This document shows positions 16,518 to 54,390 of a stretch of 64,000 nucleotides of DNA, in pieces. A program made the position numbers and the translations under genes. How positions within the stretch are numbered: the stretch's first letter is position 1; the number at the start of each line of letters is the position of its first letter. The DNA comes from an uncultured Planctomycetota bacterium. Its GTDB lineage: Bacteria; Planctomycetota; Planctomycetia; Isosphaerales; Isosphaeraceae. Location: the NCBI GenBank assembly GCA_963845755.1, contig CAWJTV010000026.1:96001-160000 (forward strand), written 5' to 3'. The notes under the pieces were generated by a model, which ran no database searches, was not told the DNA's origin, and worked only from the letters and a program-made list of their open reading frames with translations.

Positions 16518-16583
16518 GCGGGACACAGGTCACCTCGTTCAGGGCCAGGCCTGATGTGCGGGATCCGTGAGAAGGGGCTGGAC

Positions 16584-16611
16584 CCTCGCGGGTGGGGGGA
16601 CACCCGCGAGG
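16584..16611. terminator. GC-rich stem-loop between the DUF1559 and lipoprotein genes
   Basis: Perfect 11-bp stem CCTCGCGGGTG / CACCCGCGAGG. No U-tract, so it may be an mRNA-stabilising hairpin. Confidence 0.4.
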
Positions 16612-16644
16612 ATCACCGGCGCGGGGAATTCAACGCTCGGTTAA

Positions 16645-16973: not shown

Positions 16974-16977
16974 TTAA

Positions 16978-17972: not shown

Positions 17973-18216
17973 CGCAGGGTTCTCCGGTCATGTCATGGAT
18001 CTCACTTCCATAGCATGATCCGGAACAATCGTCGGAAACCTGACAGCGAGTTTTTCTTCGCGGTCGATCGATGCGGCCGCGGCTCGCGACTGTCTCGTCG
18101 TCGCGGTCGCGACCGGCGCAACGAGGAACCGAGGCCGATCATGCCGGTTGCCGCCAGCTCGTGGCACCGGTCTGGCCATTGCGATTCGAACCGAGGCTTC
18201 GTCGCCCCATTGGAGG

Positions 18217-32697: not shown

Positions 32698-34606
32698 TCA
32701 ACCAGGATTCCCCATCCGCGAGCTGGAACTTGATAGCGGTTCGGCTCGACCGGACCCTTCGCGGATGAGGAAACCGGTCCCCGCGGGCAGGTCGGAGTAT
32801 TCATCCACCTGTCCCGACGGCCATCGAATCGTCACGCGGCGGGCGACCTCGGCTTCCCCAATCCCGATCAGCAGGCGAGGGTCGTGGGCGGACGCGAGAC
32901 TCGCTCCCCCCTTGCGCTGTCGGTAGATGGTCCGATTCCCGGCCTCGACCTCGACGCGGGCGCCGATCGCATCGCGATTGCTGCGCGTTCCCTCCAGCCG
33001 GAGGCGAATCCAATGATGGCGCGTCGGGGTGTCATTGCGCAGCAAGGCCGGTGCCTTGTCCTTGTGGTTGATGACCAGATCGATGTCGCCGTCGTCGTCG
33101 AGATCACCCTGGGCGAGTCCGCGCCCCACGTGGTCGGAATCGAAGTAAGAGCCGGCCTTCCGGGTTGCGAGCTGAAACCCCGACCCGTTGAGGTTTCGGT
33201 GCAGCAAGGCCGGCTCCGCGTACGGGGTGTCCAGGCCCAGCATCTCCAGGTTGTCGTTAACGTGGCCGTTGGCGACGAAACAGTCGGGCCAGCCGTCGTT
33301 GTCGAAGTCGGCCAGGGCACAGCCCCATCCCACCCAGAGCACGCTGTCGTGGTACAGGCCGCTGACGCGCGTCCGTTCTTCGAACAGGCCCCCACCCAGG
33401 TTGGCGAACATCGCGACGCCCTCATACCAGAAATTGGTGACGAACAGGTCGGGCCGCCCGTCACCATTGACGTCCTCGGCATCGACGCCCATCCCCGCGC
33501 GCCTGCCCGTTCGGGCCATAGCCCGCACCCGAGGATTCCGTCACGTCCTGGAACCGGCCATGGCCTTGGTTGAGGAAGACAAAATTAGGACACATGTCGT
33601 TGGCAACATAAAGGTCGATCCGGCCGTCATCATCGAGGTCCGCGGCGACCACGCCGAGGCCGCGGCCATCCGTGCGGCCGATGCCGGCGGCCTCGCTCAC
33701 GTCGGTGAAGGTCCGGTCGCCGTTGTTTCGGTACAGGACGTGCCGGGCCGGCGGAATCGATTTGGGCGAGCAGTAGATCCGTTGCTTCGGCGGCGGGTCC
33801 TTCATCAAGGGGGAAGGGGCTGCATCGCAGTATCGATCGTCGTCCGGGAGCTTCCAGGAGCCATAATTGGCCACGTAAAGGTCCAGGTCGCCGTCGTTGT
33901 CATAATCGAGGAACGCCCCGGCCGACGACCAACCCGGCCGGTCGATCCCGGCCGACCGGCTGATGTCCGCGAAGGTGCCGTCGCCCCGGTTAAGATACAG
34001 GACGTTCGATCCATAGTTGCACAAGAAGACATCCGGATCGCCGTCGTTATCGATGTCACCGACCACGATCCCATGGCAAAACCCGGAGTAACCCAGACCG
34101 GAAGCCTGAGTCGCGTCCTGGAACCGATTATCGCCGAGGTTCCGGAAGAGCCGATTCGGGCCGGTTTGAGCCTTGCCCGCCGGCAGGAAGGTCATGGTCG
34201 CGAAATACAGGTCGAGCTTGCCATCGTTGTCGAAGTCGAACATGGCCACGCCGGACCCGTAAGCCGTGGGGAAGTGCTTGGCCTCGCTCATCCCCGAAAC
34301 ATGCACGAAATCGATACCGGACTCCCCGGCGATCTCGGTGAATCGGAAGGGACTGACCGGCACCCGAGCGGTCCAGTTTGCCCGCACCCCGCCCAGGTCC
34401 TCCGGCGGAGGCAAGGAGATGCCCTTGGTGGAATCCACGGATGAAAGGGGCATGGACTCAGGAAAGGACCGGAATCCCAGCTCGACCGCATAAGCGATCA
34501 GCAGCACACCGAGGGCGGCCCCGGCGAGTCGGGGAACCTTGACGCCCGGCAACGGCACGGTCGTGACCGACTTGTCGAGACGTCGAGGCCAGATCATCCC
34601 CAGCAC
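32698..34606 (-). CDS. Second CRTAC1-family protein (frameshift near 33505)
   Basis: GSGVAMFDFDNDG, GRGLGVVAADLDDDG, AGMGVDAEDV, NRDAIGARV and HDPRLLIGIG motifs. Confidence 0.9.
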
Positions 34607-36116: not shown

Positions 36117-36944
36117 CTACCAATGCATGACATACCCGCCATCGACGTTGATCGTCTGGCCGGTGATATTGCGTGCCTGGCTCGAGGCGAGGAAGACGGC
36201 CATGGCGGCGATGTCTTCGGGTTGCTGCCAGCGGTTCAGGGGGACGAGCTTCCGGATCTTGTCGGCGGACCAGGTTTCATAAGAAGGCCGGCCGGATTCG
36301 GGCTGTTCCCTGGCCCAGGCTTCGTACACCGATCGGTTGAGCGGGGTCTGGACCATGCCGGGGCAGAGCGTATTGACCCGCACGCCGTGAGGCGCCAGGT
36401 CCTTGGCGGCGCACTGGGCGAAGTTGATGACCGCGGCCTTGGCGGCGCTGTACGGCGGGTCGGTCTGCGAGCCGATCTGACCGGCGACGGAGGAGAGGAA
36501 GAGAATCGAGGGCGAGGTCGAGAGGGGGGAGCCGGCTGCCTCGTCCTCGTGGGTGGCCTCGGCCATCGCCGGGGCGAACGCATGCGCCACGTGGACGGCT
36601 CCGATCAGATTGACCTGGAGCACCCGTTCCCAGTCGGCGGGCTCGAGCTTCCAGAAGGGAAAGCCAAACTTGCCCGAGCCCAGCCCGACGGCGAAGACGA
36701 CGTGGTCGCAACGTCCGAAGTGGTTCGCGACATCCTCGGCCGCGCGGCGGACCGCGGCAAAGTCGGTGACGTCGGCGATCAGCCCCGTCGCACCGATCGA
36801 TCCGGCGAGATCCCGGACGGTCGGGTCGCGGTCGACGGCCGCCACGCGCGCCGACTCGGCGGCGAAGGCGCGCGCGATCGCCGCCCCGATCCCCCGAGCG
36901 GCCCCGAAGACCGCCACTACGTTCCCCGCCAGGCCCAGTTCCAC
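36117..36944 (-). CDS. SDR-family NAD(P)-dependent oxidoreductase (275 aa)
   Basis: GAARGIG, SSVAG, YSAAK, VRVNTLCPG, ITGQTINVDGG. GTG start with AGGGAG RBS. Confidence 0.93.
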   Translation of the reverse strand: MELGLAGNVVAVFGAARGIGAAIARAFAAESARVAAVDRDPTVRDLAGSIGATGLIADVTDFAAVRRAAEDVANHFGRCDHVVFAVGLGSGKFGFPFWKLEPADWERVLQVNLIGAVHVAHAFAPAMAEATHEDEAAGSPLSTSPSILFLSSVAGQIGSQTDPPYSAAKAAVINFAQCAAKDLAPHGVRVNTLCPGMVQTPLNRSVYEAWAREQPESGRPSYETWSADKIRKLVPLNRWQQPEDIAAMAVFLASSQARNITGQTINVDGGYVMHW

Positions 36945-36975
36945 GATCGGCTCCCTGGGGATCCCCGCGCCTTGG

Positions 36976-37274
36976 TTATTTCCCGCCCTGACGGCCGGCT
37001 TGCTGGTTCCCACGGCCGATATCGACCATGCGATCCCGCGTCGAACCCTCCGCGTTCCGGGCCTGTGCGCTCTCACTGCGCCTCGCGGGCCTGCTCGGAA
37101 GTCAGCGCCTCCCGCCGACGCTTTGCGGGACCGACCCTTTCCCTTGCCTTTCCCCTTGCCTTTTCCGTGAACGGTCAACCCGGCCTCATCAGGCCCCGCT
37201 GTTCCTAATTTCGCCTGTTCCTGCTGCTCCGGCGGGAGCGCATCGGTCAGCTTGAATCGTCCAAATCCGGCCAT
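36976..37274 (-). CDS. Small basic Gly/Lys-rich protein (about 99 aa; frameshift near 37083)
   Basis: GGAG RBS; MAGFGRFKLTD…HGKGKGKGKGKGRSRK, then in the shifted frame RSESAQARNAEGSTRDRMVDIGRGNQQAGRQGGK* with a clean stop before the SDR RBS. Confidence 0.6.
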
Positions 37275-37475
37275 GGGCGTGATCTCCGGGGAGGTTGTGC
37301 TTCCAGTCCTGTGATTAGTAGACCGAAAACGCGCCCGGTTTTCACTAGCAAGTTCGCTCGGTACCTCAGTTTTATGATAGACTGTCGGCCGGCCGCTTGT
37401 CCTGTATCGGTCGCTCCATGCCGGCCGGTTGGTGTGCCCCCCTGCCCTGCTCTCTTCCATCCCCGGAGGTCCGTC

Positions 37476-38255
37476 ATGCCGCTGGAATCCGAATCGGAAT
37501 CGGGATTGTCCACCCGCCGCGACTTCGCCCGCAACGCCGTGCAAACGCTGACCGCCGTCGTCTTGATCGAGGGGCTCTGGTCGCGCCGGCTGCTCGGGGA
37601 CGACGTCCGGCCCATCATCGACGACTGGTTCAAGGAGCTGGATTCGATCACCCGGGACGTGCACGAACACCGGGTCAAGGATGTCGCATTCCAGAAGTCG
37701 CTGGAGCAGCTCTACCAGCGGGTGGACCTGGCCTCCCTCTTGAAATCGATCGACTTCGACCGGATCACGGCCGATGTGAGCATCCCGAAAAAAGGGGCCC
37801 AGAGCCTGCCCGTCAGCTTCTCTCACGTCGCCGGGCTGCCGGGCAAGGTGGCGTTCGGCGGGCAGATCTTCGCCATGAGCAAGGGGCGATCCGTCGTGCC
37901 GCACGGCCACAACAACATGACGACCGGTTTCCTCGTCATCAAGGGGAAATTCCGAGGCCGGCACTACGATCGCATCGAAGACCACAAGGACCATTACATC
38001 ATCCGCCCGACGATCGACCGCAGCTTCCAGCCCGGCGAGTTCTCGACGATCTCTGACCACAAGGACAACATCCACTGGTTCACCGCCGAGGGCGAGACCG
38101 GATTCATCTTCAACATCCATGTGGTGGAGACCGACCCGACGAACCCCAACCGCCCCGGCCGCGTTTATGTCGACCCGGTCGGCGAGAAGCTCGCGGGCGG
38201 CCTGATCAAGGCGCCGAAGATCACGTATGGCAAGGTGAATCAGCTCTATGGGTAA
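37476..38255 (+). CDS. Tat-exported cupin-like (cysteine dioxygenase-like) protein
   Basis: GGAGG RBS; STRRDF Tat motif; PHGHNNM…NIHWF His-rich cupin motifs. Confidence 0.75.
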   Translation: MPLESESESGLSTRRDFARNAVQTLTAVVLIEGLWSRRLLGDDVRPIIDDWFKELDSITRDVHEHRVKDVAFQKSLEQLYQRVDLASLLKSIDFDRITADVSIPKKGAQSLPVSFSHVAGLPGKVAFGGQIFAMSKGRSVVPHGHNNMTTGFLVIKGKFRGRHYDRIEDHKDHYIIRPTIDRSFQPGEFSTISDHKDNIHWFTAEGETGFIFNIHVVETDPTNPNRPGRVYVDPVGEKLAGGLIKAPKITYGKVNQLYG

Positions 38256-38309
38256 GGGGATGGAATCGGCGGGGCATTCCCGCCTGGAGATCGGTTGACG
38301 TATTGCTGA

Positions 38310-38411
38310 AGGGGTGTACGAGAAGCCCCCGTAGGATGGGTCGAAGGCCGCAACGCGGCTTGAGGCCCACCGAGTTCCCACAAGCGTCCGGCGACCTTCT
38401 CGTACACCCAT
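38310..38411. mobile_element. 102-bp MITE with a GTAG-type REP inside, TSD TGA
   Basis: TIRs AGGGGTGTACGAGAAG / revcomp ATGGGTGTACGAGAAG. TGA at 38307-38309 and 38412-38414. Interior GTAGGATGGGTCGAAGGCCGCAACGCGGCTTGAGGCCCACC. Confidence 0.8.
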
Positions 38412-41125: not shown

Positions 41126-41379
41126 GGGTTGGCTCCTCCTGATGATGCGATCGCCTGGCCGGTGGGCGGGGATGTCGCGGCGGGCCCGTGATCGGATGAG
41201 CCGGGGCGCGGTGCGGTCGAGCGGACCGGACCGGCGCGTTGTGCGTATCGTCTCCATATCTTAACATTAATCGGGCACAGGGAATACTCGGGCAAAGTGG
41301 CCGGTGGGGTTTGGCAGCCCTACGGCATGCCTCGCGCCTCAGGGAGACGCCTGGTCTTGTAGGCGATGGGAGCCCCAAG

Positions 41380-43968
41380 GTGATCGCAATCGGAACGACG
41401 CTCAACCAGAGGTTCCTTCTGGAGAAGGAGTTGGGCCATGGCGGCATGGGGGCCGTCTACTCGGCCACCGACCAGGTCTTGCAGCGCAACGTCGCCATCA
41501 AGGTCCTCAAGGAGCGCAGCGGCGAGGAGGTCGGCAAGAAGCTGAGGTTGGAGGCCCAGATCGCCGCCCGGCTGCTGCACGACAACGTGGTGCGCATCTA
41601 TGATTTCGGGATGGCCGATGAGACGTATTACCTCGTCATGGAGGCGGTGACCGGGAGCAGTTACACCAAGCGGTGGCGGCACTTGACCCTGGAGGACCGG
41701 CTGCGGATCCTGGCCCAGGTGGCCGATGCGCTGGACTATGCCCATCATCAAGGGGTCGTTCATCGGGACGTCAAGCCGGCAAACGTGTTGTTGACGTCTG
41801 TCGATGCACCCAAGCTGTCCGACTTCGGGCTGTCGATCCTCGCCGAGGAGGGGGACCATTCGGGGGTGGTTCGGGGAACACCCCTGTACATGAGCCCGGA
41901 GCAGACCAAGGGGAGGCCGGTCGACTTCCGGACCGACCTGTACTCGCTGGGGGTGATGATCTACGAGTCGGTGGTCGGGGTCGCACCGTTCACGGGCTCG
42001 TCGCTGGCGATCATGGCACAACACGCCTCTTCGGATCCGGAGCCGCCCCGGGGGCGCAACCCCTGGATCTCCGAGGACCTGGAAGCCTTGATCCTGTCGA
42101 TGCTGGCCAAGCGGCCCGCGGCCCGTCCGCGGTCCGGGGGGGTAGCGGCCGAGGCGCTGCGCCAGGAGGTCGATCGGGTGGGCCGCGAGCGCCAGGCCGC
42201 GGCCTCGACGATCACGGGCGGGACAGCGACCCGGTCGGGCAGCTTCGGTCCCACGACGCCGATGTCCAGTCAGGCCCGATCCACGGTCGGGTCGGTCGAT
42301 GAGCTGGAATCGGGTATGGTGCTGCCGACGGCCGCGTCATCGGGGGCGCCGGCCGGTGGGAAGACCGATCCGATCTCCACGAGTCCGGCGACGCCATCGC
42401 GGGCGGTCGCCTCGAGTCTGGCCGCGACCTCGCAGTCCGGGGCGGGAGCCGCGTCGCGGTCGTGGTCGGTCGCGGTCTCGGTGGCCAGTAGCGGTGGGCT
42501 CACTGCGATGGTCCGGTCGCCCTTGTTCCGGAAGATGCTGGAGGTCGTGCTGGCCGATCCGATCCCGTTGACCCCCGAGGAACGTTATCTCCACGGCCAC
42601 TATCTGGCCTATCTCCTGAGCGGCTCGCGGCGGCAAGGGTTCCTGTTGCGCCGGCCCCTGGAGCCCCGCAACGCCGATCGCGCGCGACTCTTGCTGGGCC
42701 TGACCTACGCACTGCTCTGCCCGGAGAGCGAGGAGGGGATCCGGGATGCGGCCGCCCTGCTGGATCAGCAGATCGACGTCCGCCCCGCCCTCTCGCCGGT
42801 CGTCGTGGCCAAGTATCTGGCCAACCGCGAGACGCCGTCCCAGCGCAAGGTCTTCCGTCAGACGCGCAAGGCCATCGGCCAGGCCAGCGCCTATGCCCAG
42901 AAGCACATGATCGACGCCAAGGGCGTGCTCAATCCCGGCCTGATGCCCCAGCGCCTGGAGGACCTCCACCACATCGCGCCGCCTCGCACCGAGGTCGACG
43001 ACGTCCTGGTCGAGCGCTGGAACCGGGTCACCGAGGTTTGGCGGAACGAGCCGACTTTTCGCCAGGCCGTGCTCTGCTACGCCACCACCAAGGCCCATCG
43101 GGACGCCGCCAGCTCGGCCCTGTGGCCCGAGGTCGTCTATCCCCTGATCGAGCGCGCTCGTTGGCATCGCCGGATCCGCTCCCGTACCGAGGCCGTCTGG
43201 GACTACCTCTGCGCCAACGTGATCCGCGTGCCCGACGCCGGCGTCCAACTCGACCGGGCGATGAGCCGCGTCGTCCCGGCCCCGCTGGCCGCCCAGCTCG
43301 AAGACTCGCTGGAACTGCTCATCGAGAGCCCTCGGCTCGACGATGACGATGCCGATCCGTTCGCCCCGGTCGAGGAGGCCGACCGCCTGGCCGCCTCGAT
43401 CAGCGTCAGCCATGCCAGTATGGCCGAGATCGCCGCCGAGTCGGGCGGCTCCGACAAGGGCAAGATGCTGGTCCGCCTGGTCGAGCCCGACCCGCTCCGG
43501 TTCGTCCAGGGGGAACTCCACGAGCTCTGGAAGGAGGCGCTCACCGCGCTCCAGCAGCCGAACCAGGCCCGACCCGGCGCCAAGGCGGCCACCCATCGGA
43601 ACGTCCCCGTCGGGCCCTACCGCCTGGTTGTGATCCCCTCCATCCGCGGCCGAGCCGCCGGCCAGATCGCCATCCAGGGCATGGTCAACAAACAGATCGA
43701 GATCACCACCCCCACCGTCCGCACCAAGGGCTCCGGCGGCAAACCCCTCCTGGCCATCTGGGTCTACCGCGATCATAGCCTCGTCATCGCCTATCTCGAC
43801 TTCATGAATACCGAACGTTATATCTTCTGGCATGCCCCCAAGAGCCACCAGCTCAACTTCGATGGGGCCGGCGATCTCAACCACGAGCTCTTCTCCCTCG
43901 GCATGGAAGTCCCCGACCAGGTCGACAAGGCCCTGTCGCGATGGTTCAAGCCTAAGAAGACGGTCTAA
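41380..43968 (+). CDS. Soluble Ser/Thr protein kinase with an unrecognised C-terminal domain
   Basis: LGHGGMGAVY, VAIK, HRDVKPANVL, DFGL, GTPLYMSPE and DLYSLG motifs; Ser/Thr/Ala linker; about 480-aa globular tail without a TM. Confidence 0.92.
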   Translation: MIAIGTTLNQRFLLEKELGHGGMGAVYSATDQVLQRNVAIKVLKERSGEEVGKKLRLEAQIAARLLHDNVVRIYDFGMADETYYLVMEAVTGSSYTKRWRHLTLEDRLRILAQVADALDYAHHQGVVHRDVKPANVLLTSVDAPKLSDFGLSILAEEGDHSGVVRGTPLYMSPEQTKGRPVDFRTDLYSLGVMIYESVVGVAPFTGSSLAIMAQHASSDPEPPRGRNPWISEDLEALILSMLAKRPAARPRSGGVAAEALRQEVDRVGRERQAAASTITGGTATRSGSFGPTTPMSSQARSTVGSVDELESGMVLPTAASSGAPAGGKTDPISTSPATPSRAVASSLAATSQSGAGAASRSWSVAVSVASSGGLTAMVRSPLFRKMLEVVLADPIPLTPEERYLHGHYLAYLLSGSRRQGFLLRRPLEPRNADRARLLLGLTYALLCPESEEGIRDAAALLDQQIDVRPALSPVVVAKYLANRETPSQRKVFRQTRKAIGQASAYAQKHMIDAKGVLNPGLMPQRLEDLHHIAPPRTEVDDVLVERWNRVTEVWRNEPTFRQAVLCYATTKAHRDAASSALWPEVVYPLIERARWHRRIRSRTEAVWDYLCANVIRVPDAGVQLDRAMSRVVPAPLAAQLEDSLELLIESPRLDDDDADPFAPVEEADRLAASISVSHASMAEIAAESGGSDKGKMLVRLVEPDPLRFVQGELHELWKEALTALQQPNQARPGAKAATHRNVPVGPYRLVVIPSIRGRAAGQIAIQGMVNKQIEITTPTVRTKGSGGKPLLAIWVYRDHSLVIAYLDFMNTERYIFWHAPKSHQLNFDGAGDLNHELFSLGMEVPDQVDKALSRWFKPKKTV

Positions 43969-44202: not shown

Positions 44203-44304
44203 ATATCCCATCCTCGCAACTCGGCTTCCACTAAAGTACGGGCATTGCGGTTCTCGAAACATTCAATGTTCGTTAAGATCCGCGCCGATCGACCAGGCTT
44301 GGCG

Positions 44305-45963
44305 ATGTCGGAGAGAAGCATGAGCAATCCGGATACCTCCCGGCTGCGTCCGGCGGGGCTTGAGGCGGGAGGTTGGGCACGGCTGGAGCGTGCCTGGTGG
44401 GTGGCCCTGATCGCGACGATGGCGATCTTCTCGGCATTCCCGCTGGCTAACCTGCTCCTGGGCCTGTCGACGAAGGACTATACGCTCTGGTACCAGGTGG
44501 GCCAGGCGGTGCGGCAGGGGTTGGATGTCTATCCTCGGCCCGAGACCGGCCGGCTCTTTCCGTTCATGTATCCCCCCTCGGCCGCGGCGATGCTCGGGGT
44601 GCTGAGCCTGCTGGGCGCGACCGGGACGCTGATCGCCCTGGTGTTGGCCACCTCGGCGTCGTGGCTGACCGCGATCGGGCTCTCGGTCTGGCTGGCGATG
44701 GGGAAGAGTTCGCGGCGGCACCCGCTGGTCCTGATGGTGCCCTCGCTGTCGGTCATCGTGCTGATCCATAACACCTACTTGCTGGGCCAGCCGAACCTGC
44801 TGTTGCTGGCGCTGGTGCTGGGCGCGTTCGCCTGCCTCCGCCTGGGCCGGGAGATCGCCGCTGGCGCCCTGGTGGCCACGGCGGCGGCGATCAAGGCGTT
44901 CCCGATCCTGATCCTCGGCTATCTGGTCTACCGCCGGATGTGGAAGGCGACGGCCGCCACCGTGGTGGCCCTGGCCGCCTGGCTGTTGATCGCCCCGCTG
45001 CCGTTCCGGACCCCCGCCCAGACCGTCGACGACCTGGTGGTCTGGAGCAAGGGGATGATCTTCACCTACAACACGCACGGGATCGCCCAGCGCCCGCTCC
45101 GGTCGTACAGCTACAAGAACCAGTCGATCATGGCCGTGATGCACCGCCTGCTGCGGGACGTGCCGGCGGACGGCGAATCCGTCCTGTCCCGGCGGATGCG
45201 AGCCGGCCAGCTCGGTTCCCGGTCGGTCCAGGGGTTGCCGCCGCTGGATCCGACGACCGATCTGCTCAGCTACCTGAAGCCGCACCAGCACGCCGGCAAG
45301 CCGGCCCGAACCACGGGCGTGGGGACGACGGCCGCAAGTGTTGGCGGGGGCGCGAGTGCCGATCCCGTCGATGACGGATCGACCGTGTCCGGGCCGGCCG
45401 CGCGATGGGACGCGGAGATCCAGGGCGCCGAGCACGCGCTGCGATCCGCGTGGAGGGTGAACCTCCTCGACCTGGACTTCCGGACGGTGACCGCGATCAC
45501 GATGGCGGTCATGTTGGGTCTCTGCCTGTTCTTCATGGCCACGATGCCGCCGCGCCGTCGCCGCACCGATGAGACGGACGCCCTCGAATTCGCGATGGTC
45601 ACCCTGCTGACCGTGATCTTCTCCCCGTTGTCGTTCAATTATGCCTACGTCTGGCTACTCTACCCGACCACCCTGGCTTTGCACCGGGTCACGAACGAGC
45701 CGGCCACCGCGCCGCGGCACCGGTTCAAGGTCGCCTGGCTGGCCGCGGTGCTGCTGATCCCCGCCCTGGCCATCCCCATGCCGCAACTCGCCCAGGCCTG
45801 CGGCAACCTGTTCGTCCCGGCCTTGCTCCTGACCTTCGGCCTGGGTGCGATGCTCCGCGCGGCGGGGCGTCGCCCCGATCCGGCCGAGGTCCCACCGCCC
45901 CACCTTCGCGAGCACGATCATCGTGGTTCTCGAACCGAGGTTGCGAGTCTGCCTTATTCGTAG
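44305..45963 (+). CDS. GT87/DUF2029-like polytopic membrane glycosyltransferase (start uncertain, 44305 or 44320)
   Basis: KDY..WY, FMYPP, GQPNLLLL, AAAIKAFP and NQSI motifs; about 10 TM helices. Confidence 0.85.
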   Translation: MSERSMSNPDTSRLRPAGLEAGGWARLERAWWVALIATMAIFSAFPLANLLLGLSTKDYTLWYQVGQAVRQGLDVYPRPETGRLFPFMYPPSAAAMLGVLSLLGATGTLIALVLATSASWLTAIGLSVWLAMGKSSRRHPLVLMVPSLSVIVLIHNTYLLGQPNLLLLALVLGAFACLRLGREIAAGALVATAAAIKAFPILILGYLVYRRMWKATAATVVALAAWLLIAPLPFRTPAQTVDDLVVWSKGMIFTYNTHGIAQRPLRSYSYKNQSIMAVMHRLLRDVPADGESVLSRRMRAGQLGSRSVQGLPPLDPTTDLLSYLKPHQHAGKPARTTGVGTTAASVGGGASADPVDDGSTVSGPAARWDAEIQGAEHALRSAWRVNLLDLDFRTVTAITMAVMLGLCLFFMATMPPRRRRTDETDALEFAMVTLLTVIFSPLSFNYAYVWLLYPTTLALHRVTNEPATAPRHRFKVAWLAAVLLIPALAIPMPQLAQACGNLFVPALLLTFGLGAMLRAAGRRPDPAEVPPPHLREHDHRGSRTEVASLPYS

Positions 45964-46340
45964 CGGAGCCGGCCGAGTCGGTGGGTCTCGCCGGGCCAGA
46001 ATGTCAGACGACCGGGGGCAAAGGTTCGGTACAGTCTCTTTCGTTTTTTCTTCATATCCAGATTTTTCTGTTTGACGTGGCCCATGAGCCTCATTTTCTA
46101 AGTATATATCCGACTTTCAGTGCTATGGCGGCCAGCGGGGTGCGGAGCCGAGCGGTAGCTCGTTCTTGCCCGCCGAGACGCGGTTTAGTTCAATAGACTT
46201 TATCGGGCAGATAGCATCGGTCAGTGCCCTGGGACACCAACCCCGGATCCTGCGACGCCGGCAAATACGGAAACGATTGTGGGACACTCGCCAATCCGAA
46301 CGAGTCACACGTTCGGGCGCATGAAGAGGTTGATTTGAAC

Positions 46341-46769
46341 ATGGGGACGGAAGTAGTCGGAGCGGATCTCGACGGCCTTGATCTTAAATTCCATCATGTG
46401 GGCATTGCTTGCCGCGACCTCGACGTGGAGATGGGCCCCTGGCTCATGATGGGGTACCAGGTCGAGGGGGATGATTTCGTCGATCCGATCAAGGGCGTTC
46501 ACGGGAGATTTCGCTCCGGACAGTCGCCCCGGCTGGAACTGCTCGCCGCGCTGCCCGGTAGCCGCGTGCTCGATCCCTGGTTGAAGACGAGGGCGAGATT
46601 CTACCACCTGGCGTATGAGACACCGGTCCTTCAACAAGTGGTCTCGACGATGCTCGCCCGTGATGCGATTCTCGCCGTCGAACCGGTCGTGTCGGTCGCG
46701 TTTCCGGGGCGAAGGATCGCGTTCCTGATGCTTCCCACAATGTTACTGATTGAGTTGATCGGGCCATGA
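46341..46769 (+). CDS. VOC/glyoxalase-family protein (methylmalonyl-CoA epimerase-like)
   Basis: FHHVGIAC, LELL, YHLAYET, VAFPGRRIAF…LIELI metal-binding pattern. Confidence 0.85.
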   Translation: MGTEVVGADLDGLDLKFHHVGIACRDLDVEMGPWLMMGYQVEGDDFVDPIKGVHGRFRSGQSPRLELLAALPGSRVLDPWLKTRARFYHLAYETPVLQQVVSTMLARDAILAVEPVVSVAFPGRRIAFLMLPTMLLIELIGP

Positions 46770-47056: not shown

Positions 47057-48151
47057 TCACTTCTCGGAGGGCGGATGGCGGGGCTTGCGATGATCGATTC
47101 GGTCGAGGATCTTCTTCACTTGCGCGGCGACGAACGTCGTGAATTGCCTCGCCCCCATTGAGTTCAGATGGTTGGGGTCAACGAAACACCCGGGATCGTA
47201 GAGCAAGACTTCGGGGCGGTCAACGATCACATGGGAATTCTTGGATTCCAGCTCCTCGGCCCAGGCTCGGAGCTCCGCGGGGTGTTCCGCGGCCTCGCCC
47301 GGGAACGGTGTGAGCCGGATCAGCACGCCGACGCCGTGATCGGCAGTCACCCGCATCAATGTGGAAAACTCCGTCTTGAAGTCCTCAGAGACCTTGAACA
47401 GGTCGCGAGTGTTGACTTTGTCGCGAGGCGGTAACGAGAACCGCCTTCGTTCCGGAGCGGCCCAGAAGCCCCGCTCTTTCGTGACGGCGTCTTCCAAGGT
47501 GCGGAACGTCTCGCCGCCGCGGGCGGGAATCGGCTCGAGGGCGAAGCGGTCGAACCCACCGACCAGCAGACCATACGTGTACTTGAAGCCCTGGCGAACG
47601 TGATACAAGAACGAGTTGTGAGGACGCATATCTTCGGTCCCCGGCCCGTAACACCAGAGGAATCGGGACTTGACGTCCCGCTCTTCCGGGGGCCAGGACT
47701 CGATGCTGCCGGGATTGAGCGCCGTCGGCAGGATGCACACAACGAGCAAGCGGGGTTTCGGATGGTAGCGGAGGTAGGCATCGGTGATCTGGGTGATCCC
47801 ACGGATACCGATCAGGCCCACACCACCGAGATTGTAAGCCTTGAGGCCGGTCTCTCGCTCGAACTGCGACGTCCGCACGTCACAGCGGAGGCTGCTGTCG
47901 CCCACGAAGACGACGTCGTTGTCCTCGCGGGAGTCCATGGCGTAGGTCATGCAATAGCTGCTGAACGCCTCGTATTCATTGGGCGTCCGGTAATTGCGAA
48001 GGAACGTCCTCTCATTATCATAGCGCTTGCCGATGACGTACATCGGTGGGAAAACGATCGAAGCTGTCGCGGCCACGATCCCTAGGACGACGAAGGCAGG
48101 CGCGATTCGCCCCCAATCGCGGCGACGTTCTGTGGGTGCGGGCACGGTCAA
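47057..48151 (-). CDS. Membrane-anchored SGNH-like acyltransferase (DltD/AlgJ/DUF1574-like)
   Basis: N-terminal TM, VVFVGDSS (block I), YNLG, and DPNHLN (DxxH). The TTG start overlaps the MBOAT stop (inferred). Confidence 0.75.
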   Translation of the reverse strand: MTVPAPTERRRDWGRIAPAFVVLGIVAATASIVFPPMYVIGKRYDNERTFLRNYRTPNEYEAFSSYCMTYAMDSREDNDVVFVGDSSLRCDVRTSQFERETGLKAYNLGGVGLIGIRGITQITDAYLRYHPKPRLLVVCILPTALNPGSIESWPPEERDVKSRFLWCYGPGTEDMRPHNSFLYHVRQGFKYTYGLLVGGFDRFALEPIPARGGETFRTLEDAVTKERGFWAAPERRRFSLPPRDKVNTRDLFKVSEDFKTEFSTLMRVTADHGVGVLIRLTPFPGEAAEHPAELRAWAEELESKNSHVIVDRPEVLLYDPGCFVDPNHLNSMGARQFTTFVAAQVKKILDRIDHRKPRHPPSEK

Positions 48152-49623
48152 TACCTCATGTAGGCGATCTCCGGTTCCTTCTCGAGGGCCCAGAGAGAAA
48201 TGAGCATGATCGCGACGAACAGCGTCTTGACGAGGAGGGTCACATAGAGCGATCCGGTGCGCGCCCCGACTCGCTGCCCGACCTGGTCGAGGCGCGAGAG
48301 TATGGCGTCTCGGTACCAGGCGGCCAGGAGCAGGATGGGGACGAGCACCGCGATCCCCACCCCGAAAAGGCCGAGGTGTGGCGGCGCCGAGGTCACTGAC
48401 CCGGACAGGAGAGACCGTCCCACCATCGACAGGATCCGCAGCGCACCCTGCACGCCCGAGGAGAAGAAGACGAACGCGAAACCGACAAAATGCAGCGTGA
48501 CCACGACGGCCACCCAGTGGATCAATGGGTTCTTCTCGTACCTCTTGTAACGCTCGCGGCCGAGCCAGGATCGGAGCGTGTCCCCATAGATACGATTCGT
48601 GGCCGCACCGAGCCCGTGAATCGCCCCGAATACCGCGAAACCCGGCGTCGATCCATGCCACACCCCCGACAGGAACAAGGAGAAGAACAGGAGCCCGTAT
48701 CCGAGCTGCTTGCTTTGCCCGCGGAACCTCTCGACGCAGAATTTGTAGGAAGCCATGAACACGTAATCGCGAATCCAGATCGAAAGGCTGATATGCCAGC
48801 GGTTCCAGTAATCGATGACATTCCGCGAGAGGTAGGGCCGATTGAAGTTCTCGGGGAGGGTCAGGCCGATCAGCCTGGCCGCGGCGACGACGATGTCGGT
48901 GTAGCCGGAAAAATTGAGGTACATGAAGACCGGATAGGCATAGAAAAAAACCGCGAATTGGGGGAGGACCTCGACCCGTGGGTCGGACAGGAGTTGCGAC
49001 CGGCTCTTTTCAAACAGGTCCCAGGCGATGGGCGCGAGCAGCCCAACCTTGATCATGCCGGTCAGCAGCCTGTTCCAGGAGATGAGGGTATCTCGGCCAT
49101 CCCACGGCGGCAACTCCCGGGCGGTCCAGTACTCGTGGAAATCGTTGTACCGCTGGATGGGACCGGCCGTGATCGTGAAGCAAAGCAACTGGTAGTTGGC
49201 GTAGCTGGCGAACGTGAACGGGGCCAGTTGTCCTTGCGATTGATCGACGACCACGTGGATGAACTTGAACAGCATGTACGAGATGCCGATCACCTCGGGT
49301 ACCACGCGCCATGCCGCCTCCGGCAGCATCCACTCGACGAACGTGTACCGCTTCAGGAACAGGAAGCCCACGATCACGAGAGCGATGGTCGCGGGGACGA
49401 GCCCAGGGCGGGGCCGGTCCCGCACCAGGCGAAGGGCGAGGTAGGTCGCGCCGACGAAGAGGGCCAGGCACGCCGCGCTCCGCTTGTTCGGCACCACGGC
49501 GGCGAGAAAGGACAGGTTGGCGGCGGCCAGGATCGACTGTCGTAGGCCCAGCCGGTGCAGCAAGGGTATGACGATGGCCAGGACGGCGCAAAATACGAGA
49601 AATTCGATTGAACACGTATTCAT
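48148..49623 (-). CDS. MBOAT O-acyltransferase (DltB/AlgI-like, 491 aa)
   Basis: GISY, AGPIQRY, NFSGYTDI, ENFNRPY, WNRWHISLS.W.RDYVF and GVWHG motifs; C-terminus …EPEIAYMRY. Confidence 0.93.
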   Translation of the reverse strand: MNTCSIEFLVFCAVLAIVIPLLHRLGLRQSILAAANLSFLAAVVPNKRSAACLALFVGATYLALRLVRDRPRPGLVPATIALVIVGFLFLKRYTFVEWMLPEAAWRVVPEVIGISYMLFKFIHVVVDQSQGQLAPFTFASYANYQLLCFTITAGPIQRYNDFHEYWTARELPPWDGRDTLISWNRLLTGMIKVGLLAPIAWDLFEKSRSQLLSDPRVEVLPQFAVFFYAYPVFMYLNFSGYTDIVVAAARLIGLTLPENFNRPYLSRNVIDYWNRWHISLSIWIRDYVFMASYKFCVERFRGQSKQLGYGLLFFSLFLSGVWHGSTPGFAVFGAIHGLGAATNRIYGDTLRSWLGRERYKRYEKNPLIHWVAVVVTLHFVGFAFVFFSSGVQGALRILSMVGRSLLSGSVTSAPPHLGLFGVGIAVLVPILLLAAWYRDAILSRLDQVGQRVGARTGSLYVTLLVKTLFVAIMLISLWALEKEPEIAYMRY

Positions 49624-49630
49624 TATTAGA

Positions 49631-49885
49631 TTATGTCTTGCCCGCTTTCGCCTCGATGAACCGCAACAGGGTACCGACGTTCTCGCCCGGCTCCTTCATC
49701 CGCGAGATCTCGGCCGTGGCGAACTTGATGCCCAGGCCGTGCTCGAGGGCGACGATCAGGTCGATGTGCGCCAGCGAGTCCCAGTCGTCGATGTCGTCGG
49801 CCGTCATGTCGTCGCGCAGGTTGATCGAGGGGTCGTTGAAGACCTCCCGGAAGATCTTCTGGACGGTCGCTCTGACGTCATTCAC
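49631..49885 (-). CDS. Acyl carrier protein (84 aa)
   Basis: DWDSLAHIDL phosphopantetheine site; overlaps the fkbH stop. Confidence 0.92.
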   Translation of the reverse strand: MNDVRATVQKIFREVFNDPSINLRDDMTADDIDDWDSLAHIDLIVALEHGLGIKFATAEISRMKEPGENVGTLLRFIEAKAGKT

Positions 49886-51810
49886 GCGACACCTCCCGCT
49901 CGATGAAATGGTCCAGGGATTTCAGCAACGGATCGACGGACAGCGACCACAGGGTACAATCGCCGTCCGTGCCGGTCTGTTCGAACGCAAGGCGAGCGAA
50001 ATGGTCCTTGACCATACCGTTCTTCGCCGTCGGGATATAGGTCCCCAGGATCCTCGGGCGCCCCTCCCGGCGTGCCAGCTCCACGAGCTCGTTCCTCGCG
50101 AAGTGCTCGACGCCCCGCTGGAGCACCCGACAACTCATCACCCAGGTGTCGACCATCATCGCCTCTTCGCGCTTCTGGACGAGGATCACGCCGATCAGGC
50201 CGTTGTCCCCCAAGGTATCCTTGAGGCTGAACGTGAGCGTCAGCCAATCGGGCGAACGGGAGATCTCACGCATCTGGGCTGGCGTATAGCGGCGAGTGGT
50301 CAGATTGAACTGGTTGGATTTATTGACGAGCTGGGTCGCCCGTTCGAGGTTCAGTTCATTCACGCTCTCAACCTTCATCCGCATGCCCAGGGACGCCAGG
50401 AACGAGTTCAGATCGGTGGCGCGCGAGGCCAGCTCCTTGCGCTGGGCATTCTCGGCATAATAGCGTGATCGGGCCGTATCTTCGCGGGTGAACGCGACGG
50501 TCTCGAAATAGCGGTGCAAGGCCAGGGCCTGGGTGTAGCCCGCGGCGTCTTCCGGCATGTCCGGCACGGCCACTTCCGGCACGAACTGCCGCGCAATCGC
50601 CCGCTCGACCGGGTTATCGTCGACGAACACGAACGAGTCGAGCTTGAGCTCGAGTCGGTCGGCGATGGTTCGCAGATTGTCCGCCTTGTTCTCCCAGTTG
50701 GCGACGAAGCAGGAGAAGTCGGACATCTGAAGGATCATGTCCGATCGGATATCGAACGGCTCACGCGCGTTGGCATCATCGTTCTTGGAACAGACCGCCA
50801 GGAGGATTCCCCGTCGCTGGAGTTCCTTGACGTACTTCTGAAATGCGAGGAATGCCTCGCCTTCGCCCGAACCCTGACCCAGGCGGATCCCGCCAGCCCC
50901 GAGGTCGCCGATGACCCCCCCCCAGAGCGTGTTGTCCAGGTCCAGGACGAGGACCTTCTTGCTCTTGCCGACCACGGCCCGCACCAGGCTGAATACGCTG
51001 TGCGCAGTAGGAGACGAGGCACTCCGCGCCGCAGGGCATCTTGAACTCGAGGTAGAATCGAGGATCGAACCAGCTTCGTGCCCCGGCCTCGGCCGCCAAT
51101 CCCTGCAAGTCATGGAGCACGACATAGGCCGGGGCGCGCTCCGCCATCATCCTGTTCAGTCGCTCGAGGTAGTGTTCTCGGGCCGCAGGGGATCGAAGCC
51201 GGTAATGCCCCATCACGCTGCCCGGGGCAACCTCGAAGTTATTCTGGATCAGGGTCGCATTCCACCTGGCATTGGCCGACTCCCAGAGCAGGGACCAGTC
51301 GTCGAGTTCTTCGGACGCGATCCGGGAGACCGCCTGTTCGTCCATCTCGATGGAGGGAAGCCTCGACACATCCCGGGCGCCGGTCGCCAGGAACAGGACT
51401 TGAGGTTGGAACGAATCGAGCCCCGAGCCGGGCGTGAGGATCTCCTGGCGGAAAAGGCCGTAGTCCCCCTCATAGATCTCGACGGCGATTCCTTCGGATG
51501 CCAGGAAGACCTCGATGAATTGGCAGAGCTGAGTGGTGGTCGGCCCCCCGAGAATGGCCAGCCGCAGGGCGTTGCCCCGGCCCTCGGCCGGCTTCCGGGA
51601 TTGAAGGAACCGACGAAGCTTCATCAATGATGAGTAATCGAGGAGCGGACTGACCGCGCGCCCGGCCCAGACCCGGGCTGCCTCGGCCCCCTCGACTTCG
51701 GCTAACGACTTCAGCGACTGGAGGAATCCCGTGAACTTCTGATGCCTTGAGGATGTGTCGGCATTCAAGTAGGACTGGAGCAGTTCAGTCCGTTGCGGAT
51801 CGTCGGTCAT
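49878..51810 (-). CDS. fkbH: FkbH-like glyceryl-ACP phosphatase/transferase (HAD-IIIC + GNAT; frameshift near 51005)
   Basis: VLVLDLDNTLWGG, SKN, FVDDNPVE, QLVNKSNQFNLT, D..GDNG and MSCRV (catalytic Cys) motifs. Confidence 0.92.
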
Positions 51811-52645
51811 CACCTTGCCTCAGCCCAGATTTGGAGCGTGTGGTTGGAATTGAGTCCAGTCATTCGGTGTGATGAAGCCAGAGGGTTAACGTCCAGAACC
51901 CACTGCCGGGGTCCTCGCGAGGCGTCGATCGTTGAGCGGTGCGGGCTGTGGCCGATTCCGTGAAGCCCACCTTCGTCGATTTCGCAAGCACAGGAGTTCA
52001 CCACGAGGACCGTGGCTTCCAAACGTGGCAAGGAAGCGTACGATGTCCCCTGGTTTTCCCGCTATTCCCCTATGTGATCTTCGGCCGCTGGTTCGCAACG
52101 TCGGACAGGAGGGGGAGAGCTCGCTCGCGTCCGATCAACCTCGGGCTCGACACAACCAATCTAGGCCACGTTTGTGATCGACTACAATCTTAGCTTGAGC
52201 CACTGCGGCATTGTCAAGGGATTTGGCGGAATGCAGCCGTTCCGCAACACGGCGGAATCTGGGCAGCCGGGATGGGTTCAAGCTAACCTCTTGTCCTGGT
52301 TCCTCTATCGAAGAATCTCGCCAGGACTTGAGGGGATCGTTTAACGGGCCGGGATCCGAGAGGGCCGCCGCTCGACACTCGCCCGGCCGGCAAAAACGAC
52401 CCATTCCACCCGAATTGTCCAGGCTTGGGCGCCGCAATCTCGGTGTACTGTCTCATAACATGTCAAATCGTGGGCACAGGTTTTGGGGTCGATTCCGAGG
52501 TTGGGGACACCATCCTACGCCCCTTTCGTGGATGCATCCCCGTTTCGCGCACCTTGACACTCTGGCATTGCCTTTTTCCCGGCTTTGGCCAACAATGCCG
52601 CCTCCTTCCAGGCGAGGCATCCAGCGCGAGGGAACGCGGCTGCGA

Positions 52646-52737
52646 GCGGTGGTCCGTGGTGAGTCGTCGGTCGTTGCCGGGAGAACGATGACCCGGCCGG
52701 GACCTGGTCTTCCAAGACCACTGACCATGGACCCCTG
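52646..52737. repeat. Degenerate inverted heptamer arrays (GGTCCGT-like … GACCACT-like)
   Basis: 7-nt periodicity on both arms, just upstream of the Mur-ligase-like gene. Confidence 0.5.
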
Positions 52738-52764
52738 CAAACCAAGGCAAGGAGGCCTTAGCTG

Positions 52765-54390
52765 ATGGCGCGCTGGTTCGTTGACCGTCTGCCCCAGCAG
52801 GGGATCCCTTCGGTGAGCTTGCGGAAATTGCTCCCGGAGGCCCGGTTCGTCGGCTGCGCGGACTGGGAAGTCTCCGGCTGCAGCGACGATCATCGCCGGC
52901 TCGACCCGGGCCAGGTGTTCGTCGCGGTCCGCGGGGCGCGGCCGGGTTACGACGGGCATGGCTTCGTGCTCGAGGCACTCGACCGGGGCGCGGCCGGCGT
53001 GGTGGTCGAGCACCCCTGCGCCGGCGCCGGCCGGCTCCAGGTTGTCGTGCCGGACGCCATGGCGGCGCACGCGCGGATCTGCCAGGCCCTGGCCGGCGAC
53101 CCGTCGCAGCAGTTGGTCACCGTCGGGGTGACCGGGAGCTTCGGCCGGACGATCACCGCCCTGATGATCCGTTCGATCTTCGAAGCCGCCGGGCAGCGGA
53201 CCGGCCTGCTCGGTGCGCTGGGCTTCACCAACGGGACGACCGCCCGAGCCCTCGGAGTTGGCCTGGATCCCCGGATCTCGACCGGAAGACCGAGCCTGGG
53301 CGGGGGCCGCTCGGCCGCCTGCGGTTCGTCCCGAGCGTTCATCCCCGGCGCGGCCGGCCTGGCGGCTTTGATGTCCGAGATGGTCGAGGGGGGATGCAAG
53401 GCGGGCGTCCTGGAGGTCTCCGCCGAGTCGATGAGCCACCGGAGCTTCGAGGGGATCGGCTTCCACGCGGCGGTCGTGACCGACGTGGGTGCGCCACGCG
53501 GATATCCCGCGGACGTGGTGCTCCAGCGGCGCCGGGCCAAGGCCAGGCTGATCCGGAGCGTCGTTCCCGAGGGCGTGGTGGTGATCAACGCCGACGACCC
53601 GAATGCCGAGATCCTCGGCGGTGTGAACCTCGATGCGCGCCGGGTCGCCTTCGCGATGGAGCCCATGGCCCGGCCGGACCGCGACGTGGACGTCTCGGCT
53701 CGACTGATCCAGGTTGACGGGTCGGGGACGCGGATGGTCCTCCAGGGCTTCGACCGCGAGGCCCTATTGCAGTTGCCCCTGGTCGGCCCGAGGGCGGCGG
53801 CCTGTGCCCTGGCCGCGGCGGCCCTGGCCCGGGCACTGGAGATCGACCGGGCCGCGGTCATCGACGGGCTGGAGGCCGTCCGGTCGGTGGCCGGGCACCT
53901 CGAGGCGGTCGTCGAGGGCCAGGACTTCGACGTCCGCGTCGACGCATCGGCCAGCTCGGCGGCACTCGAGGAAGCCTTGGCCGCCGTCCGGGCCGTGGGG
54001 GCCGGACAGGTCCATTGCGTCCTCAGCGCCGAGGGATGCAGCGACCGCACCGAACGGCGGCGGCTGGCCGAGGCCGCCGAGGCCGGGGCCGATCGTGTCG
54101 TCCTCACCATCAGTAATCCTCGCACCGAAGACCCCAACCAGATCCTCGACGACGTCCTGGCCGGTTTCCGACGCCCGGGCAAAGTCCGCGTCGAGCCCGA
54201 CCGTCGCCGTGCCATCGAGGCCGCCCTGGCCGATGCTCGCACCGGTGATGCCGTCCTGATCGCCGGCAAGGGCCGCCACACCTTCCAGATCCTCGCCGAT
54301 CGCGTCATCCCCTTTGACGACGCCCTGATTGCCCGAGAATGGCTCCGCCACCACACCCGCCCCGCCGCTCCCGCCCAGCGATCGGCGTGA
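52765..54390 (+). CDS. MurE-like Mur ligase family protein with degenerate catalytic motifs (541 aa)
   Basis: AAGGAGG RBS. The three-domain MurE layout is recognisable (FVAVRG..DGH, NPRTEDP, AGKG), but the P-loop reads GSFGRT. Confidence 0.85.
   Translation: MARWFVDRLPQQGIPSVSLRKLLPEARFVGCADWEVSGCSDDHRRLDPGQVFVAVRGARPGYDGHGFVLEALDRGAAGVVVEHPCAGAGRLQVVVPDAMAAHARICQALAGDPSQQLVTVGVTGSFGRTITALMIRSIFEAAGQRTGLLGALGFTNGTTARALGVGLDPRISTGRPSLGGGRSAACGSSRAFIPGAAGLAALMSEMVEGGCKAGVLEVSAESMSHRSFEGIGFHAAVVTDVGAPRGYPADVVLQRRRAKARLIRSVVPEGVVVINADDPNAEILGGVNLDARRVAFAMEPMARPDRDVDVSARLIQVDGSGTRMVLQGFDREALLQLPLVGPRAAACALAAAALARALEIDRAAVIDGLEAVRSVAGHLEAVVEGQDFDVRVDASASSAALEEALAAVRAVGAGQVHCVLSAEGCSDRTERRRLAEAAEAGADRVVLTISNPRTEDPNQILDDVLAGFRRPGKVRVEPDRRRAIEAALADARTGDAVLIAGKGRHTFQILADRVIPFDDALIAREWLRHHTRPAAPAQRSA

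Follow-up and report, generated by a model that had tools for sequence, protein, structure and literature searches.

An FkbH-type loader and a carrier protein coupled to an MBOAT-SGNH pair in a soil planctomycete: a candidate route to acylation of an envelope polymer

Related acylation systems and the make-up of the operon

Pairings of a membrane-bound O-acyltransferase (MBOAT) with an SGNH-fold protein are a general bacterial route to the esterification of polymers outside the membrane. The Dlt pathway is the sole carrier-protein-fed example that has been studied, and it is a target for sensitizing Gram-positive pathogens. In the Dlt relay, DltB shifts D-alanine from the carrier DltC to a tyrosine in the C-terminal F-x-Y-x-x-F motif of DltX and from there to a serine of DltD, whereas PatA and other acetyl-CoA-dependent MBOATs carry this hexapeptide themselves, attached via two extra helices (PMC12148441). 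The portion of this 2025 mechanistic paper on which we draw states that MBOAT/SGNH pathways other than Dlt have no carrier protein. Here, we describe a four-gene minus-strand operon of a soil planctomycete, located at positions 47057 to 51813 of a 64,000-nucleotide stretch of DNA (the whole of which we call the window), that encodes an FkbH-type loader, a carrier protein, a DltB-like MBOAT, and a membrane-anchored SGNH-fold protein (the SGNH partner) in co-directional, head-to-tail order. We consider it probable, with moderate confidence, that the operon encodes carrier-protein-dependent O-acylation of an envelope polymer, in which 1,3-bisphosphoglycerate would give rise to glyceryl-acyl carrier protein (glyceryl-ACP) and the acyl group would pass by way of His277 and Tyr488 of the MBOAT and Ser84 of the SGNH partner onto a periplasmic glycan.

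Loaders of the FkbH/OzmB type are known from methoxymalonyl-ACP and tetronate pathways. A review, in the part cited here, traces the reaction of OzmB (366 aa) from 1,3-bisphosphoglycerate through phosphoglyceryl-S-enzyme and glyceryl-S-enzyme to glyceryl-ACP (PMC9057759), and the cited part of a tetronate paper gives the same glyceryl-ACP chemistry for Mad7/Mad14 (PMC7489565). In Campylobacter jejuni, the fkbH-domain gene cj1302 belongs to a flagellar glycosylation locus, and the glycans carry dimethylglyceric acid (PMC7099621, as cited in part). The features of the operon are as follows.

51813..49878, minus strand: gene of the FkbH-type loader (whole), about 640 aa if the frame is intact
51007..51813, minus strand: N-terminal part of the loader (frame A), with the FkbH_N domain (PF21211, 1.2e-13)
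51006, no strand assigned: extra base that splits the loader frame, located by ortholog comparison and a short-read contig
49878..51005, minus strand: core of the loader (frame B), a HAD-IIIC phosphatase plus thiol transferase domain (TIGR01686)
49631..49885, minus strand: acyl carrier protein, 84 aa, GTG start, with a D-S-L motif; Ser37 codon at 49775-49777
48148..49623, minus strand: DltB-like MBOAT, 491 aa (PF03062, TIGR04091); catalytic His277 codon at 48793-48795
48151..48168, minus strand: C-terminal hexapeptide I-A-Y-M-R-Y (Tyr488) of the MBOAT, which matches the F-x-Y-x-x-F acyl-shuttle motif
47057..48145, minus strand: SGNH-fold partner, 362 aa, GTG start (from an AlphaFold model and motifs)

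The loader and carrier genes overlap by 8 nucleotides (nt), and gaps of 7 nt and 2 nt separate the carrier gene from the MBOAT gene and the MBOAT gene from the SGNH partner gene. A 534-aa open reading frame (ORF) listed from 48661 is an over-extension into the MBOAT gene, and the SGNH partner gene proper has 362 codons. An initial annotation of this DNA had described four tightly packed minus-strand genes in a window devoid of polyketide synthases (PKS) and nonribosomal peptide synthetases. The ORF positions and family scans bear out the arrangement, and none of the 47 large ORFs scanned with Pfam encodes either kind of synthetic enzyme. The planctomycete host that it had proposed fits the DUF1559/N_methyl and DUF1501 proteins encoded in the window.

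Similar to Dlt, the operon has tightly coupled genes, in which a small carrier would feed an MBOAT and a membrane-anchored SGNH-fold protein would complete the transfer outside the membrane. Among solved structures, DltB is the closest to its MBOAT, and DltD is the one that aligns over the most residues of the SGNH partner, which resembles it in N-terminal anchor and fold but has no sequence-model match. In contrast to Dlt, the loader is an FkbH-type HAD/thiol transferase protein and not the adenylating DltA, and no AMP-binding protein is encoded in the operon; the cargo would therefore be a glycolysis-derived hydroxy acid and not D-alanine. The MBOAT, although homologous to DltB and in possession of the catalytic His, is no equivalog and is 102 aa longer; there is no DltX, the Tyr shuttle being on the MBOAT itself; and the host is a diderm planctomycete, without known teichoic acid.

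With PatA/PatB-type pairs, which add O-acetyl groups to alginate, to cellulose, and to secondary cell wall polymer, the operon shares the two extra C-terminal MBOAT helices, a hexapeptide of the F-x-Y-x-x-F type (with Tyr as its last residue where the consensus has Phe), an SGNH partner that is a separate protein, and a predicted relay from His to Tyr to Ser as outlined in the cited part of PMC12148441. Those pairs are described there as acyl-CoA-fed and carrier-free, whereas here translational coupling links the MBOAT to a carrier and its loader. With FkbH/OzmB-type loaders, the operon has in common a core that scores above the family cut-off, the HAD motifs, a conserved Cys, and an adjacent stand-alone ACP. 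It differs in that the window contains neither a PKS nor a FabH-like tetronate enzyme nor tailoring genes of the FkbI/K/G type, the consumer being an MBOAT instead, and in the length of its loader, about 640 aa with an extra FkbH_N domain against the 366 aa given for OzmB (PMC9057759). The likeness to cj1302 lies in an FkbH-domain gene within a glycan-decoration locus of a Gram-negative bacterium and in a glycerate-derived acyl group, there on pseudaminic acid. The part of PMC7099621 cited does not tie cj1302 to that modification and names no MBOAT/SGNH partner, and the glycan decorated is a nucleotide-sugar-derived flagellin glycan.

These comparisons refine the initial annotation, which had read the locus as Dlt-like. 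The loader-carrier-MBOAT-SGNH logic, the placement of FkbH where Dlt has DltA, and a probable extracytoplasmic acceptor remain the likely reading, backed by scores, motifs, fold, complex model, and synteny. Where the analogy falls short is the shuttle: there is no DltX and, as in PatA, the MBOAT itself carries the Tyr motif, so that more than the loader sets the system apart from Dlt. Since the region upstream lacks DltX and the Tyr motif stands at the MBOAT C terminus, the operon appears, as judged from its sequences, to be a hybrid of a Dlt-type carrier donor and a PatA-type fused Tyr shuttle. It is neither a member of Dlt nor of the PatA/PatB type but a further form of the MBOAT-SGNH kind. 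We found no description of an FkbH-fed MBOAT in open-access papers and bioRxiv, subscription journals lying outside the search. The operon and its relatives would be a counter-example to the absence of a carrier from non-Dlt pathways, as that absence is stated in the cited part of PMC12148441. With their Dlt-type donor, their PatA-type shuttle, and a loader that draws on glycolysis, they would point to an unstudied class of hydroxy-acyl envelope decorations in diderms. The system would also bear on the composition of planctomycete envelopes.

The four proteins and their predicted relay

Frame B of the loader matches the FkbH model TIGR01686 at 4.4e-89 (298.8 bits against a cut-off of 146.65; 299.4 bits over the same region in the genome search) and the HAD-IIIC model TIGR01681 at 4.7e-19. 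The FkbH_N match in frame A covers residues 84-274 of a 345-aa ORF. Among solved proteins, the loader resembles PDB 3slr, an uncharacterized Bacteroides protein that also has the extra FkbH_N domain (7.6e-56). In an alignment of seven FkbH proteins (that of the window, those of the related loci L011 and L014, two from genome G020, one from G204, and the second copy of this genome), residues D62, D64, T66, S113, K147, D169, D170, and S331-C332-R333 are invariant. The HAD phosphatase motif set (D-x-D-x-T, Ser, Lys, D-D) is complete, and the S-C-R motif holds a single invariant cysteine, Cys332, which we take to be the nucleophile that forms the acyl-enzyme. Within 6948-11746 of locus L045 (G000:C29:414500-434000), the second FkbH-like gene of the genome (768 aa, 169.7 bits) adjoins a PMT_2 GT-C glycosyltransferase; no ACP or MBOAT was found near it.

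The initial annotation had named the loader FkbH, and the family score agrees; it had overlooked that the frame is split. Frame A runs from 51813 to 50776 and frame B from 51125 to 49878, so that they overlap by 350 nt. Comparison with the single-frame orthologs of L011 and L014 places the cause in one surplus base at 51006, right behind a Tyr codon. We compared the region 50400-51600 with contigs (Logan) of four public soil-metagenome runs (X1-X4). A 163-nt short-read contig of run X1 (depth, 4.5) has one base fewer at 51006 and 0 other differences, and the contigs of X2-X4 do not cover this position. Because the X1 contig lacks the base and the orthologs are in one frame, the break is most likely an assembly indel. 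Two overlapping FG-GAP ORFs elsewhere in the window (33461-34606 and 32698-33528, minus strand), the second of which ends in UnbV_ASPIC, look like one split gene, which would likewise fit indel errors in the assembly, and several related long-read metagenome-assembled genome (MAG) loci show similar frame breaks in tblastn comparisons.

The carrier protein has Ser37 of its D-S-L motif as the putative phosphopantetheine serine. All its NCBIfam matches fall below cut-off (DltC model, 1.5e-4, 21.7 bits against 68; ACP models, 2.5e-3). Among solved structures, it comes closest to 2lml, a "putative acyl carrier protein" (5.4e-14), with DltC chains at 0.04-0.16. At another locus, L013, a gene for an Sfp-type phosphopantetheinyl transferase (4874-5644, minus strand) lies 3 kb from a lone paralog of the SGNH partner.

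The MBOAT matches PF03062 at 6.1e-15 and the DltB model TIGR04091 at 1.9e-53 over residues 8-389 (182.1 bits, below the equivalog cut-off of 375). It aligns to solved DltB (8jem, 6bug) over residues 111-389 at 1.7e-34, with W-H-x-S-L-S in register. Residues 390-491, the 102 aa beyond the DltB model, comprise hydrophobic helices at 413-443 and 456-482 followed by the terminal I-A-Y-M-R-Y. H277, H323, and Y488 are invariant in 14 aligned MBOATs, including a 25%-identical member from G020, and a hydrophobic-x-Y-x-x-F hexapeptide ends 17 of the 21 related rows in the tblastn comparison; the other four (L008, L018, L027, and L033) are cut short or frame-broken. Upstream of the FkbH gene, no DltX-like small ORF with a membrane helix and a Tyr motif was found. 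In one metagenome contig, an MBOAT that ends in I-A-Y-M-R-F runs into the start of an SGNH partner without a stop (P0023, 558 aa). This is a read-through fusion or an error; if it is real, the Tyr motif would be internal.

The SGNH partner has no Pfam or NCBIfam match, the DltD models included. One N-terminal membrane helix (residues 12-39) is preceded by R-R-R, so the body of the protein should face the periplasm. Across 25 aligned sequences, S84 of the G-D-S motif is invariant, G82, D83, and H326 are conserved in at least 90%, and Asp323 of D-x-x-H is present in most rows; the alignment has no conserved G-x-N-D stretch that would supply the block III Asn of the oxyanion hole. The AlphaFold model (pLDDT, 87.4; pTM, 0.84) has the SGNH fold. 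Its highest-scoring VIA-align match is the platelet-activating factor (PAF) acetylhydrolase 1wab (Z, 14.7; root mean square deviation, 3.2; 179 aligned residues), and its longest alignments are to DltD (6pfx, Z of 12.6 with 238 residues aligned; 3bma, Z of 12.3 with 244). PatB appears in the Foldseek list at rank 18. The family is of moderate extent: a word-indexed search gave 35 proteins, and an exhaustive search of 1.84 billion representatives gave 157 at E ≤ 1e-30, 544 at 1e-10, and 3425 at 1e-3. Atlas look-alikes of the partner are all "hypothetical protein" clusters and serve as leads only.

A predicted complex of the MBOAT and the SGNH partner supports the idea that the two bind each other. 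Its interface score (ipSAE) was 0.78, 0.79, and 0.78, compared to 0.00 for the best of three controls; the mark is one reached by 116 of 157 solved complexes and by 2 of 215 mismatched pairs. Between runs, agreement on contacts is 92% or higher, with a partner pLDDT of at least 81. In the model, the partner helix 10-35 packs on helix 1 (6-21) of the MBOAT and on the final MBOAT helix (460-481), from which the chain continues into the Tyr motif, and partner residues 52 and 183-191 contact MBOAT residues 171-183 and 251.

Taking these observations together, we propose the following relay. FkbH would take 1,3-bisphosphoglycerate and form a phosphoglyceryl-thioester on its conserved Cys, from which the HAD domain would remove the phosphate. 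By analogy with the chemistry established for the family, it would then hand D-glycerate to the phosphopantetheine on Ser37 of the 84-aa carrier. Glyceryl-ACP would dock at the cytoplasmic face of the MBOAT, where His277 would transfer the acyl group to Tyr488 of I-A-Y-M-R-Y on the periplasmic side, the Tyr relay being suggested by the motif, and Ser84 of the SGNH partner would accept it and esterify a hydroxyl of a periplasmic or surface glycan. A GT-C glycosyltransferase, for example the neighboring GT87 enzyme, most likely builds or decorates the glycan that would serve as acceptor, and the acyl group, as we infer, would be glyceryl. The proposal concerns a small system of four proteins and makes direct predictions: the carrier should gain 88 Da, and it should be possible to trap acyl intermediates at Tyr488 and Ser84.

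Conservation, neighboring genes, and alternative readings

Scanning species genomes with the SGNH partner yielded 34 related loci, nearly all of them in Planctomycetales or Planctomycetaceae MAGs, whose gene content was assigned by tblastn. The combinations found are listed below.

FkbH, ACP, MBOAT, and SGNH partner together: 8 of 34 loci (L004, L005, L010, L011, L014, L017, L033, and L018)
MBOAT and SGNH partner only: 12 of 34 loci
SGNH partner only: 14 of 34 loci

L018 belongs to a Pseudobdellovibrionaceae MAG, and its FkbH is cut by the contig end. The synteny that the initial annotation had put forward as a check thus exists as a full block in these eight loci. Genomes of relatives hold 4-12 paralogs of the SGNH partner and 1-3 FkbH genes. 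In the genome studied here, there is a single partner gene and a single close MBOAT, along with five distant MBOAT matches and the second FkbH-like gene described above. Among 301 evenly sampled Planctomycetota genomes, FkbH scores above cut-off in 32 and a close MBOAT (E ≤ 1e-40) occurs in 3 (G000, G020, and G204); in 3/3 of these, FkbH and the MBOAT share a strand and are no more than 3.4 kb apart. Among 201 Bdellovibrionota genomes, a close MBOAT was found in 2, one of which is the L018 genome. In the G020 cassette (L046), the 359-aa protein after the MBOAT has no detected homology to the partner family (profile comparison, 11% probability). Locus L053 (G508:C130:30000-41232), from the genome of the closest pair L008, encodes a GDSL protein, an ACP, an FkbH, and two MBOATs. 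At L029, a serine recombinase and a RepB partition protein (15653-18089) lie 2-5 kb from an SGNH-SGNH-MBOAT set, a hint that some copies ride on mobile DNA.

Three neighbors of the operon bear on the identity of the acceptor and of the acyl group.

44245..45963, plus strand: GT87-family membrane glycosyltransferase, convergent, a possible acceptor-building enzyme (PF09594, 2.9e-19)
46224..46769, plus strand: VOC (Glyoxalase_4) protein, convergent, a possible acyl-thioester epimerase (PF13669, 3.7e-12)
52765..54390, plus strand: MurE peptidoglycan ligase, divergent upstream neighbor (TIGR01085, 265.8 bits; cut-off, 257.3)

The first two had been placed convergently downstream of the operon by the initial annotation, and Pfam finds both there. 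Their association with the operon is conserved by class and not by sequence: in tblastn searches, the GT87, VOC, and MurE proteins, as well as the 184-aa ORF located between the operon and murE, have 0 matches beside the 34 related loci, whereas other GT-C and VOC proteins recur. Of the 6 full-cassette contexts that could be assessed, 4 are flanked by GT-C glycosyltransferases, namely GT87 in the window, YfhO-like proteins in L010, L011, L014, and L017, and PMT_2 in L004 and L046. We found none in L033 or L047, L018 being too short for assessment, and none stands beside the 25 annotated loci without FkbH. GT87, PMT_2, and YfhO are all GT-C enzymes that use lipid-linked sugars outside the membrane. 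The window GT87 has a weak match to a mannosyltransferase model (1.4e-8). Used as tblastn queries against the related loci, FtsW, MurC, MurB, Ddl, YfhO, and PMT_2 matched only their source loci and close kin.

Several observations weigh against glyceryl-ACP-fed acylation of an envelope glycan by this operon. As given, the window sequence interrupts the FkbH frame, and its repair rests on one contig of depth 4.5, possibly from the same sample, which is thin support. Scores against the Dlt models are low for both the MBOAT, which is far below its equivalog cut-off (182 against 375), and the carrier, whose DltC match is weak (1.5e-4). Because Dlt complexes have already been solved, the pass of the predicted MBOAT-SGNH complex may partly reflect likeness to them. 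The SGNH partner gene occurs without FkbH in 26 of the 34 related loci, among which the closest MBOAT-SGNH pairs (L003 and L008; 52-57% identity) have no adjacent FkbH and ACP, although an ACP-FkbH-MBOAT set is present elsewhere in both genomes. The other Bdellovibrionota genome with a similar MBOAT has no FkbH. Finally, since MaoC, short-chain dehydrogenase/reductase (SDR), or methyltransferase genes are found in other cassettes, the acyl group of the family need not be plain glycerate. For the operon in the window, plain glycerate would be the simplest cargo because it has no tailoring gene.

The transferred group might also be something other than plain D-glycerate, glyceryl-ACP first being altered by enzymes from outside the operon, for example through epimerization at C2 by the VOC protein or through conversion to a lactyl or other three-carbon acyl group. 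VOC/Glyoxalase_4 proteins do recur with FkbH-ACP sets: apart from the convergent gene here, they are found inside L046 and right after an FkbH paralog in L052 (genome G504), the latter being 34% identical to the window VOC over 128 aa. Tailoring genes are likewise present elsewhere, with SDR genes just upstream of FkbH in L004 and L005, MaoC in L033, and MaoC, methyltransferase, and SDR genes in L046. The four coupled genes of the window include none of these, however, and its VOC gene is on the opposite strand, scores 25 bits against the methylmalonyl-CoA epimerase model (far below the cut-off of 115), and has no counterpart beside the cassette in any of the 34 related loci. We regard an altered cargo as rather unlikely. 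Less likely still is that the acceptor is peptidoglycan, with the machinery acting as a PatA/PatB-like O-acylation of glycan strands that uses a carrier-bound, glycerate-derived group in place of acetyl-CoA. The PatA-type architecture of the MBOAT with its fused shuttle motif would suit this reading, and peptidoglycan genes are immediate neighbors in three contexts: MurE in the window, FtsW/RodA directly upstream in L010, L011, and L014, and murC-murB-ddl directly after the MBOAT-SGNH pair in L023. This pattern was spotted post hoc, though, and no peptidoglycan gene stands beside 19 other annotated loci or beside L003, L008, L009, L016, L031, and L036. Moreover, the GT-C neighbors suggest another glycan, and the partner matches DltD over more residues than PatB. 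That the FkbH-fed relay puts a glycerate-derived ester on planctomycete peptidoglycan or, alternatively, on a GT-C-built periplasmic glycan tied to wall growth seems improbable to us; a peptidoglycan target would, if true, be a new wall modification and the first carrier-protein-fed acylation of peptidoglycan. On this reading, the 4-12 SGNH paralogs held by the genomes of relatives would distribute one donor among several acceptors.

The two remaining explanations would remove the polymer or the acyl donor from the scheme. The MBOAT superfamily includes lipid acyltransferases, and the MBOAT could acylate a membrane lipid or the acyl-ACP could be used on a small molecule, with the SGNH partner as an esterase or remodeler. 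By Z-score, the folds nearest to the partner are indeed those of small esterases and lipases (PAF acetylhydrolase and TesA, for instance), and genes for CDP-alcohol phosphatidyltransferases are located near the lone SGNH paralogs of L032 and L035. This reading has to contend with an MBOAT closest to DltB among solved proteins, a shuttle hexapeptide that the cited part of PMC12148441 ties so far to polymer acylation, a predicted complex that sets the SGNH anchor against the helix leading to that motif, and GT-C glycosyltransferases as recurrent neighbors of full cassettes, and we judge it very unlikely. Similarly slim, in our estimate, is the chance that the locus is decaying, that is, that the FkbH frameshift is real and the operon yields no acyl-ACP in its host. 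The extra base does stand in the window sequence, and the X1 contig alone contradicts it. That contig, however, lacks exactly the base predicted from the orthologs; apart from the break, both halves of FkbH are open and keep every catalytic motif; the three genes downstream are intact; and similar breaks are seen in the FG-GAP/ASPIC gene and in related long-read MAG loci. Carrier-fed acylation of a periplasmic glycan remains the reading that we favor.

Other features of the window and of related loci

The VOC proteins of L046 and L052 belong to a second kind of FkbH-ACP cassette (L046, 48-6656, plus strand; L052, 3983-8688, plus strand), which ends in an N-acyltransferase (NAT) of the Antibiotic_NAT type instead of an MBOAT. 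The order in L046 is MT-VOC-MT-FkbH-ACP-NAT, where MT stands for methyltransferase. L046 additionally encodes a Wzx flippase, and L052 additionally encodes a DUF4910/M28-like protein. These cassettes look as though they N-acylate an amino sugar, with a glycerate-derived acid as the acyl source.

Two candidates near the operon were set aside. The 184-aa ORF at 52211-52765 was treated as non-coding because it has no family match and an Arg/Pro/Gly-rich translation. The SDR gene at 36117-38411 was not counted as a tailoring gene because it is 9 kb away and outside the operon. Scans for promoters (3 versus 1.3 ± 1.1 in shuffled sequences) and terminators (5 versus 4.1 ± 2.2) did not rise above the shuffles.

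A Ser/Thr protein kinase gene adjoins the SGNH paralog in L024, L025, L027, L031, L032, and L035, and the window has one at 41239-43968, just before the GT87 gene; because planctomycetes have many kinases, this adjacency may be due to chance. The window also contains a cluster of insertion-sequence genes (6709-14453), composed of an IS66 transposase (6709-8244), an rve integrase (10514-11236), and a DDE_Tnp_1 transposase (12546-14453).

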